Below the pieces are notes generated by a model. That model saw only the letters and a program-made list of their open reading frames with translations, had not been told where the DNA came from and did not search any database. A stretch of 64,000 bases of DNA from Escherichia coli (lineage in GTDB: Bacteria > Pseudomonadota > Gammaproteobacteria > Enterobacterales > Enterobacteriaceae), in NCBI RefSeq assembly GCF_044647545.1, contig NZ_CP172818.1. One strand, given 5' to 3'. The position numbers and the translations under genes are program-made. Shown here piece by piece: positions 9,050-14,568 of the stretch (its first letter is position 1; each line of letters starts with the position of its first letter).

Positions 9050-9547
9050 TCACCGCAGCATCGTCATCAGCTCCATGGGAGAACGATGCTGCTTTATCAG
9101 ATCACGCATCACCCGCATATGCGGCGCGGAGTAAGAATAAAACGCCTGATAGCCCGCACAAAGCACGTTGTCTGGCGTCTCCTCCCGAGCGTGCGGGCAC
9201 AGGCGATGCCAGTCGCACGCCTGGCAGCCACGACGCGGTTGCGGGTTTTCGCTGCCACACCATTTTTGTAGGGTGGCGTCAAAAAGCTCAATCGAAATAC
9301 GACTGATATCTGCCCGTACCCAACACTCGAACAGGGCAATTAAAAATTTCCCCCACAGCTCTGCTGTCACCGAAGCGGCCGTCAGATCGCCCCGGTCATC
9401 AAATTCAAGATGGGGAATAAGCTGTACGGAGCGGATACCCCGTTGTTTGAAATTGTGATAAAAATCGGCAGGTTGCAGAGCATCCTTGTACTCTACAACC
9501 AGTTTATGCCTGTCCTCTTCAGCATCAATGACCTGACTTCCTGTCAT
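9050..9547 (-). CDS. yidF: YidF, Cys-rich SPASM-like protein (putative sulfatase-maturating enzyme lacking a radical-SAM core)
   Basis: 165-aa ORF with clustered cysteines (CGSENPQPRRGCQACDWHRLCPHA) but no CxxxCxxC motif; adjacent to sulfatase yidJ. Confidence 0.8.
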   Translation of the reverse strand: MTGSQVIDAEEDRHKLVVEYKDALQPADFYHNFKQRGIRSVQLIPHLEFDDRGDLTAASVTAELWGKFLIALFECWVRADISRISIELFDATLQKWCGSENPQPRRGCQACDWHRLCPHAREETPDNVLCAGYQAFYSYSAPHMRVMRDLIKQHRSPMELMTMLR

Positions 9548-9906
9548 GCGACTCTCTCAATAAATACGATAAGTTGATGTATATGCGTTACAGCAAACAG
9601 TATTGCGAGAGATAACACCGCGAGGGAGATCAAAAATTTGTCACGGACTACGTGAAATTGGGAAAAATCGCTATTCGTGACATCCATTAAATTGCGATTA
9701 CGGGTGTAGTGCCAGAGGATCAGCGCCACAATGGCGAGAATGCCAATCGAAATCCAGAATAACATGCCCGCCTGGTGCCAGTTGTGTTTGATAGCCAACG
9801 CCATCAACGCGCCGTAGCCCAGCATGGTACGAAACCACGCCAGTGATGTACGCTCCGGCTGCAGCCCTGGGTCGGCAATGCGTCTGGCTTTGCGGCTATC
9901 CGGCAT
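9544..9906 (-). CDS. yidG: Inner membrane protein YidG
   Basis: 120-aa hydrophobic ORF, overlapping yidF start and yidH stop. Confidence 0.8.
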   Translation of the reverse strand: MPDSRKARRIADPGLQPERTSLAWFRTMLGYGALMALAIKHNWHQAGMLFWISIGILAIVALILWHYTRNRNLMDVTNSDFSQFHVVRDKFLISLAVLSLAILFAVTHIHQLIVFIERVA

Positions 9907-10243
9907 ACAACACCAGTCCCATAACGATCACCGCCACGACCATCAATATTAAGCTGATGATTAATAAGCTGTTGGTGTAGGGCAGGTCCTCTTTCAGACG
10001 CATCGCTTTTTCATTGCGTAACCAGCGCAGGTAGCCATACATCGCTAACCCGCCGGAAAACAGACACAACAACAACGCCAGCAGTTCGCGAATGACGGGC
10101 GTGGCGAAATCTGGCGCAAGTTGATCAAGCCCAACCCCCGCCGCCAGAAAGCCTAGTGCGGTACGGATCCACGCCAGAAAAGTACGCTCATTAGCCAGCG
10201 AGAAGCGATAATCAGGTGCTTCTCCGAGGCGGGAAATTTTCAT
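9896..10243 (-). CDS. yidH: Inner membrane protein YidH (DUF202-like)
   Basis: 115-aa hydrophobic ORF with an AGGAG ribosome-binding site upstream. Confidence 0.8.
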   Translation of the reverse strand: MKISRLGEAPDYRFSLANERTFLAWIRTALGFLAAGVGLDQLAPDFATPVIRELLALLLCLFSGGLAMYGYLRWLRNEKAMRLKEDLPYTNSLLIISLILMVVAVIVMGLVLYAG

Positions 10244-10302
10244 TGTTGCTCCTTAACTGTTCCTCGCCGAAAAAAGTAGGCCAGGAAAACAGCAATAATG
10301 CA

Positions 10303-11796: not shown

Positions 11797-13508
11797 AGGC
11801 TATCCTTCGCGTCGGGAGTAAAGGTTACGGCTGGGTCGTGACGATGCCGCCAGCTGTCAAAAATCAGGTAGACAATCACTACGGCAGCGATGAAATAACT
11901 GATCATCGCTAACCAGCGCGTACCGTAGCCGCCGAATTCAGCCAGCCCGGCATAGACGCCAATCATAGCGAACAGGATGCCAATTGACGCGATCTTGACG
12001 TTTTTCCACGGTTTCATGTCCACCGCAAACGCATCTTTGAAGGTGAACGGCGTGGCGCGCGGTTTGATAAAACCGATCACCAGCATCACGACCACGTTGA
12101 TGCAGAACGTACAGGCCAGCACATAGAGGAAATGGAAGTCGAACTTCACCAGATAGTTGATGGTGATGTAGCTGATTATGCCAATCCCCATCGCCACTTT
12201 TGCCGCCAGCGCTGGAATGCGCGGGAAGAAAAAGCCCATAATGATGATGGTAACCAGCGGCACGTTGTAAATACCGTTGAGCTGTTTCATCCAGCTATAC
12301 AGCCCCTGCGGCGCGTTGGCGATCCACGGCGCGACCAGCACCGAAACGATAGCGATAAAGAAACCAAATTTGCGCCCGACGGTGACCAGCTGCTGCGGCT
12401 CGGCATTCTGGTTAATGATGCGACGGTAAATACCCATACTGAATAACGTACTGGCGCTATTCAGAAAGCCGTTGAAGGTACTGATCACCGCACCAAATAA
12501 CACCGCGCCGAAGAAACCCACCAGTGGCACTGGCAGAACGTTATTGACCAGCGTCGGGTAGGCCATGTCGGCTTTCGGTAGATCCTGATACAGATGAAAC
12601 GCAATCAACCCTGGCAGCACCAGTACCAGCGGGTCGAGCATTTTCAGCACCGCCGTTAACAGCGCCCCCTTTTGCCCTTCCGCCAGGCTTTTTGACGCCA
12701 GCGTGCGTTGCACGATGCCCTGATTTGTACACCAGTAAAAGGTGTTCACCAGAATCAAACCGGTAAATGCCGCGCCAATCGGCAAGGGATCGGTCGGGCC
12801 ACCGACTGAGTTTAATTTCTCGGCGTGAACGGTGGTGAGTTGCTCAATGCCCTGCATAAAGCTGCCCTTGCCCATCGCGATCAGGCCAAATATCGGCACC
12901 ATCAACCCGCCAATAACCAGCCCAATACCGTTGATGGAGTCCGCCACTGCCATTGCGCGCAGTCCGCCGATCACCGCATACAAAATTCCCGCCAGACCAA
13001 GCAAAATTACCAATAGCCAGATAGCCGCACCGTGAGAAATCTGTAGCGATTCCCCGACGTGAAACAGGCTGTTGAGCGCCAACGCGCCGGAGTAGAGAAC
13101 AATCGGCAGAAAGCAGACGCCGGTGGCAATGAGGAAGCAGAAGTCGATGATAATACGCGTCGTTTTATCATAACGTTCCTCCAGAAAATCGGGGATGGTG
13201 GCAATGCCGCGCTTCAGATAGCGTGGTAAAAAGATTAGCGCGAGGAAGATCAGCGTCACCGCTGAAGTCACTTCCCAGCCCATCACCGACATGCCGCTTT
13301 TGTAGGCCTGCCCGGAAAGACCAACCAGTTGTTCCGTGGAAAGGTTGGTTAACATTAACGAAGCGGCAATAACCGGCGCTTTTAGTGAACGTCCGGCAAG
13401 AAAATAGCCTTGTTGCGATCCGGTATCTGTTTTGCGAACCTTCCACCAGGTGATGATCGCCACCAGCAGCGTAAAACCGACAAAACTCAAGATTTGTAAC
13501 GAATTCAT
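11793..13508 (-). CDS. yidK: Sodium:solute symporter family transporter YidK
   Basis: 571-aa polytopic membrane ORF; 4-bp overlap with yidJ implies co-transcription. Confidence 0.9.
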   Translation of the reverse strand: MNSLQILSFVGFTLLVAIITWWKVRKTDTGSQQGYFLAGRSLKAPVIAASLMLTNLSTEQLVGLSGQAYKSGMSVMGWEVTSAVTLIFLALIFLPRYLKRGIATIPDFLEERYDKTTRIIIDFCFLIATGVCFLPIVLYSGALALNSLFHVGESLQISHGAAIWLLVILLGLAGILYAVIGGLRAMAVADSINGIGLVIGGLMVPIFGLIAMGKGSFMQGIEQLTTVHAEKLNSVGGPTDPLPIGAAFTGLILVNTFYWCTNQGIVQRTLASKSLAEGQKGALLTAVLKMLDPLVLVLPGLIAFHLYQDLPKADMAYPTLVNNVLPVPLVGFFGAVLFGAVISTFNGFLNSASTLFSMGIYRRIINQNAEPQQLVTVGRKFGFFIAIVSVLVAPWIANAPQGLYSWMKQLNGIYNVPLVTIIIMGFFFPRIPALAAKVAMGIGIISYITINYLVKFDFHFLYVLACTFCINVVVMLVIGFIKPRATPFTFKDAFAVDMKPWKNVKIASIGILFAMIGVYAGLAEFGGYGTRWLAMISYFIAAVVIVYLIFDSWRHRHDPAVTFTPDAKDSL

Positions 13509-13674
13509 CTCATAGCCCTTATTTATGTTTATGTCCCGGACGCATGAATATAGGGAGAGGTAAAATGCGTCGGGTCAGGCAGTCAGATTCTTAAAATACA
13601 AACATCGTATCCCTGAACGGATTGTTTTCTGTTAAGTTCAGGTTGTGAGCATAATTCGCCGGAGGGATATTAAA

Positions 13675-14568
13675 ATGAATGGAAAATTGCAAAGTTCGGA
13701 TGTAAAAAACGAAACTCCGTACAATATTCCCTTATTGATTAACGAAAATGTGATCTCCAGCGGAATTTCTCTGATCTCGCTCTGGCATACCTACGCCGAC
13801 GAGCATTACCGGGTGATCTGGCCGCGGGACAAGAAGAAACCGCTTATCGCCAACTCATGGGTTGCGGTGTATACCGTACAAGGATGTGGGAAAATTATTT
13901 TAAAGAATGGCGAACAAATAACTCTGCATGGCAACTGTATTATATTTTTAAAGCCAATGGATATTCACTCTTATCACTGTGAAGGTTTAGTCTGGGAACA
14001 GTACTGGATGGAATTTACCCCCACCAGTATGATGGATATTCCCGTTGGTCAGCAAAGCGTTATTTATAATGGCGAAGTTTATAATCAGGAACTCACCGAA
14101 GTTGCTGAGTTAATTACTTCACCAGAAGCAATAAAAAATAATCTGGCAGTCGCTTTTCTGACGAAAATTATTTATCAGTGGATTTGTCTTATGCACGCAG
14201 TCGGTAAAAAAGATCCACAACGGCGGCAAATTGAAAAATTAATTGCCACTTTACATGCCAGTCTACAACAACGCTGGAGCGTAGCTGATATGGCTGCCAC
14301 GATCCCCTGTAGCGAGGCCTGGTTGCGTCGTCTGTTTTTACGCTATACCGGCAAGACGCCGAAAGAATATTACCTCGATGCGCGTCTGGATCTGGCGCTA
14401 TCGCTATTAAAGCAACAAGGGAACTCGGTTGGCGAAGTCGCTGATACGCTCAACTTCTTCGACTCCTTTCATTTCAGCAAAGCCTTTAAAAATAAATTTG
14501 GTTATGCGCCGTCAGCCGTGCTGAAGAATACGGACCAGCACCCCACGGATGCCAGTCCACACAATTAA
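13675..14568 (+). CDS. yidL: AraC/XylS-family transcriptional regulator YidL
   Basis: 297 aa from ATG at 13675 preceded by GGAGGG; C-terminal AraC-type HTH (...[16 protein letters not shown]...). Confidence 0.85.

Follow-up and report, generated by a model that had tools for sequence, protein, structure and literature searches.

The yid sulfatase cluster of Escherichia coli: a maturase reduced by deletion, a Vtc1-like membrane protein pair, and a possible pathway for sulfated hexoses

The locus of interest, yidF-yidG-yidH-yidJ-yidK together with the divergent gene yidL, occupies positions 9050–14568 of a 64,000-nucleotide stretch of Escherichia coli DNA (contig NZ_CP172818.1; hereafter, the window). 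The open reading frame (ORF) list, megablast and the RefSeq annotation agree on this layout, with yidF, yidG, yidH, yidJ and yidK on the minus strand, and the gene set matches the RefSeq annotation of an E. coli strain at 99.9% identity; the six genes lie where a first-pass annotation, made from the sequence alone, had placed them. Megablast finds the locus in 5421 of 5426 complete E. coli genomes, 5100 of which carry at least 80% of it. As the first-pass annotation had held, this is an already known, uncharacterised locus and not a new system: a literature search returned no paper on the YidJ substrate, on YidF, or on bacterial DUF202 function (matches for DUF202 in one paper proved to be DUF2023 and DUF2027). 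Nothing on the yid locus is experimentally established beyond the papers cited here. Its features are as follows:

yidF, 9050–9547, minus strand: 165 aa, radical-SAM-less derivative of an anaerobic sulfatase-maturating enzyme (anSME)
yidG, 9544–9906, minus strand: second DUF202 membrane protein, 120 aa, always paired with yidH
yidH, 9896–10243, minus strand: DUF202 three-helix inner-membrane protein, 115 aa, Vtc1-like by sequence and model
yidJ–yidH spacer, 10244–10302, minus strand: 59 nt with Shine-Dalgarno AAGGAG; yidI insertion absent
yidJ, 10303–11796, minus strand: predicted cytoplasmic Cys-type S1 sulfatase, 497 aa
YidJ formylglycine signature C52-T-P-A-R56, 11629–11643, minus strand: from the translation; aligns with S/C-x-P-x-R of solved sulfatases
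yidK, 11793–13508, minus strand: SGLT-type sodium:solute symporter, 571 aa, first gene of the operon
yidK–yidL divergent control region, 13509–13674, no strand: contains the published yidL transcription start, the G at 13645
yidL, 13675–14568, plus strand: AraC/XylS-type regulator, 297 aa, divergent from the operon

The order of transcription is yidK, yidJ, yidH, yidG, yidF. The start codons of yidJ and yidF each overlap the preceding stop codon (ATGA), and yidH and yidG overlap by 11 nt; together with the 59-nt spacer, these junctions support a single operon. In K-12, O157 and many other E. coli strains the operon would be split by yidI, a 450-bp gene for an inner-membrane protein that lies between yidH and yidJ and is read from the opposite strand. 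The present strain has no yidI, and the same uninterrupted yidJ-yidH layout is seen in other genera. At the far end, emrD and yidF are convergent and end only 7 nt apart (window 9043–9049), with no terminator-like hairpin found between them in the scan.

By its sequence, YidF is a deletion derivative of the operon's own full radical S-adenosylmethionine (radical-SAM) sulfatase maturase. The protein has no Pfam match, neither to Radical_SAM nor to SPASM, and the CxxxCxxC motif of the SAM-cleaving [4Fe-4S] cluster is absent from all 165 residues, in agreement with the first-pass annotation; the whole segment that carries CNLxCRYC in full-length anSME orthologues is deleted in the alignment. Against TIGR03942, the anSME model, YidF scores 75.9 bits (3e-21), failing the family cutoff of 349.45, and the match covers only profile positions 160–245 and the C-terminus. 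Likewise, YidF aligns only to residues 175–246 and 314–370 of anSMEcpe. Comparison with full-length orthologues (alignment A3) resolves two in-frame deletions: (i) after the N-terminal MTGS/C, which is kept, ~150 residues comprising the radical-SAM core are gone, and (ii) a further 55–60 residues are gone along with the first-auxiliary-cluster cysteines. The latter, which we take to be C255, C261 and C276 in anSMEcpe numbering, fall in the region aligned to anSMEcpe 247–313 that is missing from YidF.

What is left of the protein retains C108, C111 and C130, which are invariant and correspond to second-auxiliary-cluster ligands of anSMEs (CxxCx5C...C); C117 is present in Escherichia and replaced in several Citrobacter forms. 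The AlphaFold model of YidF has a predicted local distance difference test (pLDDT) score of 80.9, with the Cys-rich segment poorly modelled (56–67), and its only Foldseek matches in the PDB are anSMEcpe chains (E = 5e-6; query-normalised TM-score, TMq, 0.64). In descent and fold YidF belongs with the anSMEs, being syntenic with and alignable to the full-length enzymes and matching anSMEcpe in fold. Loss of the radical-SAM core and the first auxiliary cluster means that it cannot be expected to make formylglycine or to do radical-SAM chemistry; that YidF is not a maturase is, in our judgement, highly probable.

The route by which YidF reached this form can be followed across genera. We surveyed the state of the locus by scanning one genome per species with YidH, followed by tblastn. 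The arrangements recovered are (i) the full cluster with a full-length, 360–374-aa anSME (state A: Citrobacter werkmanii, C. youngae ATCC 29220, Kluyvera, two Pluralibacter, two Pseudocitrobacter, Enterobacter sp. R1, and L004, a contig of a metagenome-assembled genome [MAG]), (ii) yidH-yidG with a full-length anSME and no sulfatase (state A': two genomes, one with a broken CxxxCxxC), (iii) the full cluster with short YidF (state B: E. coli and Superficieibacter), (iv) yidH-yidG with short yidF only (state B': Citrobacter, Leclercia, an Enterobacter MAG and E. albertii), (v) yidH-yidG only (state C: twelve genomes), and (vi) yidL, yidK, yidJ, yidH and yidG with no maturase (state D: Phytobacter). 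The full-length anSME sits after yidG in nine enterobacterial full-cluster loci, mostly with CxxxCxxC intact. That of C. werkmanii scores 483.9 bits on TIGR03942 (cutoff 349.45) and is 46% identical to AslB. Contig L004 reads AraC, then sodium:solute symporter (SSS)–sulfatase–DUF202–DUF202, then a complete anSME with MTGCHVMAKPASSRCNLRCRYC at its start, interrupted by nothing but two assembly Ns. The new maturase that the first-pass annotation had implied thus turns out to be an ordinary anSME, doubly deleted, whose full-length form stands at the same position in sister genera.

Short YidF homologues (154–213 aa) occur in Escherichia, Citrobacter, Leclercia, Superficieibacter, a Klebsiella MAG and Silvania, at 84–87% identity within Escherichia and 41–53% outside it. 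In Enterobacteriaceae bacterium RIT691 (L032, 10698–11780), a full-length anSME follows yidG, yidJ is absent, and CxxxCxxC is broken (MTGCHVMAKPARSGCNLNSRCFY); this gene apparently marks an early stage in the kind of decay that YidF has undergone. The full-length anSMEs of Vibrio (L036, 8635–9939), Rahnella (L042, 10686–11981) and Phytobacter (L054, 10691–11989) end in CPCGSGxKxKxCC, a tail that we take to resemble the SEC-C zinc-binding motif of SecA.

The sulfatase itself shows no such loss. YidJ matches the Sulfatase domain PF00884 at 240.7 bits (cutoff 25; E = 2.8e-71), with SGSH_C also matched. The domain begins at residue 4, and there is therefore no signal peptide. The Cys-type signature CTPAR, picked out in the first-pass annotation, is present at residues 52–56, and D12, K100/H102 (GKWH) and D283/H284 (SDHGE) align with metal and catalytic residues of solved sulfatases (alignments inspected by eye). 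Family membership and intact motifs indicate that YidJ would be an intact, cytoplasmic, Cys-type sulfatase dependent on formylglycine. Orthologues with 58–85% identity are spread over many Gammaproteobacteria, marine genera included. In two E. coli assemblies (P0236 and P0237), gene calls of 641 and 632 aa join DUF202 and sulfatase domains at 99–100% identity to YidJ; these are probably read-through or mis-calls.

Ratios of nonsynonymous to synonymous substitution rates (dN/dS) were calculated by the Nei-Gojobori method (NG86) from pairwise alignments. For yidJ the ratio is 0.04–0.07; comparing E. coli with Superficieibacter, two taxa with short YidF only, it is 0.04, indicating that YidJ stays functional with the stub alone and without a cognate maturase. 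Since YidF cannot mature it, another factor must do so. Candidates are the paralogous AslB or YdeM, or the suspected E. coli formylglycine pathway, which was still described as suspected in a 2021 paper citing Benjdia 2007 (PMC8379841).

The two genes between sulfatase and maturase form a separate module, far more conserved, that the first-pass annotation missed. Both products match DUF202 (PF02656; cutoff 23.4), YidH at 69.8 bits (2.8e-19) and YidG at 46 bits (7.1e-12). A phmmer comparison of YidH with yeast Vtc1 gives E = 0.0025 over 95 residues. The AlphaFold2 model of YidH (pLDDT 81.6) has three helices, and its top four Foldseek matches in the PDB comprise two Vtc1 entries along with the transmembrane domains of Vtc3 and Vtc4 (probabilities 0.93–1.0). 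The best of these, 8i6v_C, has TMq 0.72, target-normalised TM-score (TMt) 0.80 and a root mean square deviation of 2.8 Å; the fold comparison covers YidH only. In the complex called vacuolar transporter chaperone (VTC), five first transmembrane helices (TM1) form a polyphosphate pore, lined by Vtc1 K24 and R31 (PMC9911596). YidH R13 and R20 align with these pore residues, and across 40 diverse sequences R13 and R27 never vary, while conservation of R20 is at least 90%. As judged from alignment and model, YidH and YidG are Vtc1-like DUF202 proteins that keep the pore arginines. YidH is 83–97% identical across Enterobacteriaceae, and in most distant proteobacterial loci with callable ORFs the YidH-like and YidG-like genes are adjacent. 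This yidH-yidG(-yidF) module and the decay history of YidF from a full maturase are new here.

Selection on the remaining genes follows the same division. The dN/dS of yidH is 0.02–0.10, that of yidG mostly 0.07–0.22, and that of full-length anSME 0.07–0.10. Short yidF gives 0.12 between E. coli and divergent Escherichia, 0.18–0.21 in Citrobacter species without yidJ, and 0.34 in Leclercia. Its last 40 codons are the most constrained, with a C-terminal motif, MRVMRDL..HRSP, that is invariant or nearly so; the N-terminal three quarters give 0.13–0.42. The stub is relaxed, yet not neutral, and remains under purifying selection. Its retention tracks yidH-yidG and not yidJ. In the E. coli KMi012 lineage (L088, 5364–7145), yidJ, yidK and almost all of yidL have been replaced by an IS200/IS605 tnpA-tnpB element, while yidH, yidG and yidF are intact and YidG and YidH are identical in sequence to those of other strains. 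Persistence of YidF in this lineage and, under purifying selection, in yidJ-less Citrobacter and Leclercia speaks against its being the YidJ maturase. Kept by selection, and always with yidH-yidG, YidF probably has a non-catalytic role alongside YidH and YidG.

Outside the enterobacterial yid locus, 7 of 51 loci have a sulfatase 0–2.6 kb upstream of DUF202 on the same strand; these sulfatases are all of the CxPxR type and all lack a signal peptide. They fall into four architectures, with an anSME in three of the four PTS-type loci (PTS, phosphotransferase system; EIIBC, its enzyme IIBC component). The gene orders are:

Vibrio: AraC, then SSS–YidJ (74% identity)–anSME–DUF202 pair
Rahnella and Phytobacter: PTS EIIBC–581-aa sulfatase–GntR–DUF202 pair–anSME
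Cedecea and a second Phytobacter locus: PTS–sulfatase–aldose epimerase–RpiR–DUF202 pair
Azospirillum: LysR, sulfatase, DUF202, anSME
Acetobacter: DUF202–OpuAC binding protein–choline-sulfatase (824 bits, TIGR03417)–DUF202, with no anSME

Within the distant 20-kb loci, every sulfatase match lies within ~6 kb of a DUF202 gene and all but one within 2.6 kb, with none in the outer parts. The adjacency recurs with three sulfatase families, three transporter types (SSS, PTS and an ATP-binding cassette [ABC] binding protein) and five regulator families. An anSME partnership was considered as the main link of DUF202 and rejected, because the Acetobacter DUF202 pair flanks a choline-sulfatase cluster that has no anSME. 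The factor common to these loci is sulfate released inside the cell, rather than a maturase or a substrate, and on this basis we propose sulfate efflux: YidH and YidG might let sulfate out as an anion pore, an idea that we put forward tentatively and with more doubt than confidence. Four further Vibrio and Enterovibrio loci (L044, L051, L069 and L077) have a DUF202 pair beside a MurP-like PTS EIIBC, a MurQ-like SIS etherase and RpiR, with no sulfatase; by analogy only, a MurQ-like etherase would also yield an acid anion, in parallel to the sulfatase.

The remaining structural gene, yidK, bears on the substrate. YidK is a sodium:solute symporter coupled to yidJ, as the first-pass annotation described: it matches PF00474 (171.9 bits, 2.7e-50), NF007790 (856.6 bits; cutoff 401) and TIGR00813 (416; cutoff 184), and its closest solved relative is vSGLT (1.1e-53), with SGLT1/2 also among the closest. 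Residues of the vSGLT galactose site have been listed (PMC8037263, PMC4270436), and YidK keeps six of the seven galactose ligands (Q69, E88, S91, N260, Y263 and K294). The position of vSGLT Q428 is K408 in YidK (codon 12285–12287); among 13 orthologues it is Lys in twelve enterobacterial proteins and Arg in a 41%-identical Vibrio protein. A galactose growth phenotype has been published for a yidK mutant (PMC5293155), a report that the first-pass annotation had overlooked. In Marinomonas flavescens (L091, 1–15144), a YidJ orthologue with AraC and SSS partner genes has as neighbours two further sulfatases, a GH36 alpha-galactosidase, another SSS transporter and LacI regulators. The neighbours of the Vibrio locus were uninformative, amounting to no more than a xylose-isomerase-like ORF, recognised by eye, and the family-5 solute-binding component of an ABC system. 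Together, the YidK ligands with K408, the galactose phenotype and the Marinomonas neighbours point to a sulfated hexose, perhaps galactose sulfate, as the putative substrate. No closer call can be made because the nearest solved relatives of YidJ—S1_30A, a carrageenan 2-sulfatase and a GlcNAc-6-sulfatase—are ~30% identical and of mixed specificity.

YidL is an AraC-type regulator, as first annotated, with both DNA-binding (HTH_AraC, 66.5 bits, 2e-18; HTH_18, 63.6 bits, 2.1e-17) and ligand-binding domains (AraC_binding, 29.7 bits, 6.2e-07; cutoff 21.1). Its real start is the ATG at 13675 behind the Shine-Dalgarno GGAGGG (the RefSeq start), not the GTG at 13645 that opens a longer ORF; position 13645 is the mapped yidL transcription start (PMC3950696). 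Published work on K-12, which the first-pass annotation had also missed, has H-NS repressing the yidL promoter and BglJ-RcsB activating it (PMC3950696). The yidL region has a GC content of 41–44%, compared with ~53% in the operon. A promoter and terminator scan returned no sigma-70 consensus in the yidK–yidL control region and nothing above chance overall, and absence of the consensus is expected of an activator-dependent, silenced promoter. Phylogenetic footprinting across 11 genera reveals conserved blocks in the yidK–yidL spacer and the yidK Shine-Dalgarno AAGGGC, with no clear repeat in that spacer assignable as a YidL site. The published H-NS silencing explains the cryptic behaviour of the locus and the lack of observed activity, and shows how the locus can be switched on. 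Beyond yidL, the adjoining 6-phospho-alpha-glucosidase gene looks broken (window 14565–15405) into ORFs of 265 aa (14608–15405) and 74 aa (14565–14789), where strain FDAARGOS_497 has a single 1323-bp gene.

On balance, and with limited confidence, we lean towards reading the yid locus as a normally silenced sulfated-hexose pathway that carries a decayed maturase stub (YidF) and a possible sulfate-exit pair (YidH/YidG). The proposed sequence of events is as follows: (i) H-NS keeps yidL off and BglJ-RcsB can switch it on, as published, after which YidL would presumably activate the yidK promoter on sensing the sugar, (ii) YidK would import the sulfated sugar with Na+, the conserved Lys/Arg at the Q428 position suiting a sulfate ester, (iii) YidJ would free sugar and sulfate in the cytoplasm, (iv) YidH/YidG, as an anion pore, would let the sulfate out, (v) YidF, a remnant of the operon's anSME, would play its non-catalytic part with YidH-YidG, and (vi) AslB, YdeM or the suspected formylglycine pathway of E. 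coli would mature YidJ. Import by YidK and desulfation by YidJ, taken together, seem to us rather probable.

Several observations weigh against this reading. Over-expressed YidH was picked in a D-alanine export screen, yet no transport was shown (PMC10299036). YidJ orthologues in Marinomonas, Halomonas and Sodalis have an SSS partner and no DUF202 genes. In most DUF202 loci (Arthrobacter, mycobacteria, Pectobacterium, Dickeya) and in most Enterobacteriaceae, yidH-yidG lack a neighbouring sulfatase, so that sulfate efflux cannot be the sole or an obligatory role of the pair. A basic residue at the YidK Q428 position is suggestive only as a sign of a sulfate ester, and the nearest solved relatives of YidJ, at ~30% identity, act on different substrates. 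The dN/dS ratios are drawn from dS values of 0.4–1.0, near saturation for NG86. Lastly, YidF has been wholly lost in many genera, which fits decay as well as it fits a dispensable function.

The alternative that survives best is that yidH and yidG encode housekeeping membrane proteins unrelated to the sulfatase, their position in the operon being a historical accident. In Enterobacter, Lelliottia, Kosakonia, Mangrovibacter, Siccibacter and others the pair occurs on its own with high conservation, for most distant DUF202 loci a sulfatase is lacking within 10 kb, the Marinomonas, Halomonas and Sodalis modules do without DUF202, and the Vibrio pairs adjoin a MurQ-like etherase instead. An accident of position does not readily account for same-strand adjacency that recurs over three sulfatase families, three transporter types and five regulator families, nor for the confinement of sulfatases in the distant 20-kb loci to within ~6 kb of DUF202. 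We regard the housekeeping explanation as credible, while leaning against it.

A second alternative concerns YidF, which could be a functionless, decaying pseudogene whose open frame and conserved tail are left over, or are a by-product of, for example, selection on translation at the end of the operon. Two large deletions have removed the catalytic parts; the gene evolves 2–4 times faster than its full-length counterpart and far faster than yidH; frameshifted versions exist in some strains; the Cys-rich segment is modelled at pLDDT 56–67; and a graded series runs from full length, through full length with a broken CxxxCxxC (L032), to the short form and to absence. Against this, the frame is open over 154–213 aa in at least six genera at 41–53% identity with MRVMRDL..HRSP invariant or nearly so, and dN/dS is 0.12–0.34 overall and 0.13–0.42 in the N-terminal three quarters; a sequence evolving neutrally would have picked up stops and frameshifts by the time dS is near 1. 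The short forms also cluster in a neighbour-joining tree (61 of 100 bootstraps; long-branch effects possible), which implies long persistence. We consider a pseudogene unlikely, and favour a stub that is retained with yidH-yidG.

Less likely still is that the cluster scavenges sulfur, or handles a non-sugar ester such as an aryl or choline sulfate, instead of using a sulfated sugar for carbon. The best NCBIfam matches of YidJ are to arylsulfatase and choline-sulfatase models, a preprint assigns yidJ to aryl-sulfate assimilation, and a DUF202 pair flanks a true choline-sulfatase cluster; however, the two NCBIfam scores lie far under their cutoffs (212 vs 481 and 198 vs 433), the partner transporter is of the SGLT type with vSGLT sugar ligands kept, the AraC-type regulator and layout are those of a sugar operon, a GH36 alpha-galactosidase and other sugar genes surround the orthologue in Marinomonas, and the yidK mutant phenotype is on galactose (PMC5293155). 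We judge this explanation improbable. Weakest of all, and to our minds barely tenable, is a YidF that acts as a new radical-SAM-independent maturation factor or chaperone for YidJ: its place in the same operon, translational coupling to yidG, invariant C108, C111 and C130 at second-auxiliary-cluster ligand positions, purifying selection, and a suspected formylglycine route in E. coli (PMC8379841) are outweighed by loss of the SAM-binding cluster and all three dedicated first-auxiliary-cluster cysteines, failure against the curated anSME model (75.9 bits vs 349), an intact frame at dN/dS 0.18–0.34 in Citrobacter and Leclercia without yidJ at the locus, retention where an IS element has replaced yidJ, yidK and yidL, and the full-length anSME that full-cluster genera often keep instead.

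Set beside known systems, the ancestral yid cluster resembles the pairs of sulfatase and anSME (E. coli aslA-aslB and ydeN-ydeM, Klebsiella atsA-atsB, and Clostridium perfringens with anSMEcpe) in placing an S1 sulfatase beside a radical-SAM/SPASM maturase. The E. coli yid locus differs in that (i) all that remains of the maturase is a 165-aa stub lacking the SAM cluster, (ii) two DUF202 genes stand between sulfatase and maturase, and (iii) YidJ is predicted to be cytoplasmic, whereas AslA and AtsA are presumably exported. Among the vSGLT/SGLT symporters, YidK matches vSGLT (1.1e-53) and shares six of its galactose-site residues; it differs in the Lys/Arg at Q428 and in its genetic coupling to a sulfatase. 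Yeast Vtc1 (PDB 7ytj, 8i6v, 9umg) and YidH are alike in DUF202, in three-helix fold (TMq 0.72, 25% identity) and in the NERTFL motif of TM1. The bacterial DUF202 proteins differ in being free-standing pairs without a polymerase or SPX domain, and the cargo proposed for YidH/YidG, if they conduct at all, would be sulfate, a small ion, rather than the polyphosphate polymer.

Exporters of the TauE/SafE, TauZ and SuyZ types are encoded inside organosulfonate degradation clusters. There is a likeness of logic, by analogy, in that a cytoplasmic enzyme frees a sulfur anion and a membrane protein for its exit would lie in the same cluster; DUF202 is unrelated to these exporters in sequence. Finally, the yidL promoter resembles that of bgl, an H-NS-silenced cryptic sugar operon, in being H-NS-repressed, BglJ-RcsB-activated, AT-rich and without a consensus promoter (PMC3950696). 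Unlike for yid, both substrate and activating mutations are known for bgl.

For the biology of E. coli, which to our knowledge still has three sulfatase genes without a known substrate, this analysis removes YidF as a candidate maturase; with YidJ under strong selection, another maturation route must serve. The substrate search is narrowed to sulfated hexoses, possibly galactose sulfates such as mucin or algal galactans release. The analysis also adds the Vtc1 homology, along with its sulfate-pore idea, and, at residue level, a hint of a sulfated sugar. More speculatively, and at odds we consider low, bacterial DUF202 pairs may be prokaryotic counterparts of the eukaryotic VTC polyphosphate pore, small anion channels through which the acid left by ester or ether cleavage in the cytoplasm would escape, with YidF, its maturase chemistry lost, retained as a cytoplasmic partner, perhaps a gate or an iron-sulfur sensor. 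If this is true, DUF202 channels would vent sulfate from YidJ here, and from choline sulfatase or PTS-linked sulfatases elsewhere. For bacterial DUF202 this analysis offers a first concrete hypothesis that can be tested; the family is widespread, and its only relatives with a characterised role are those that build the polyphosphate channel of yeast.

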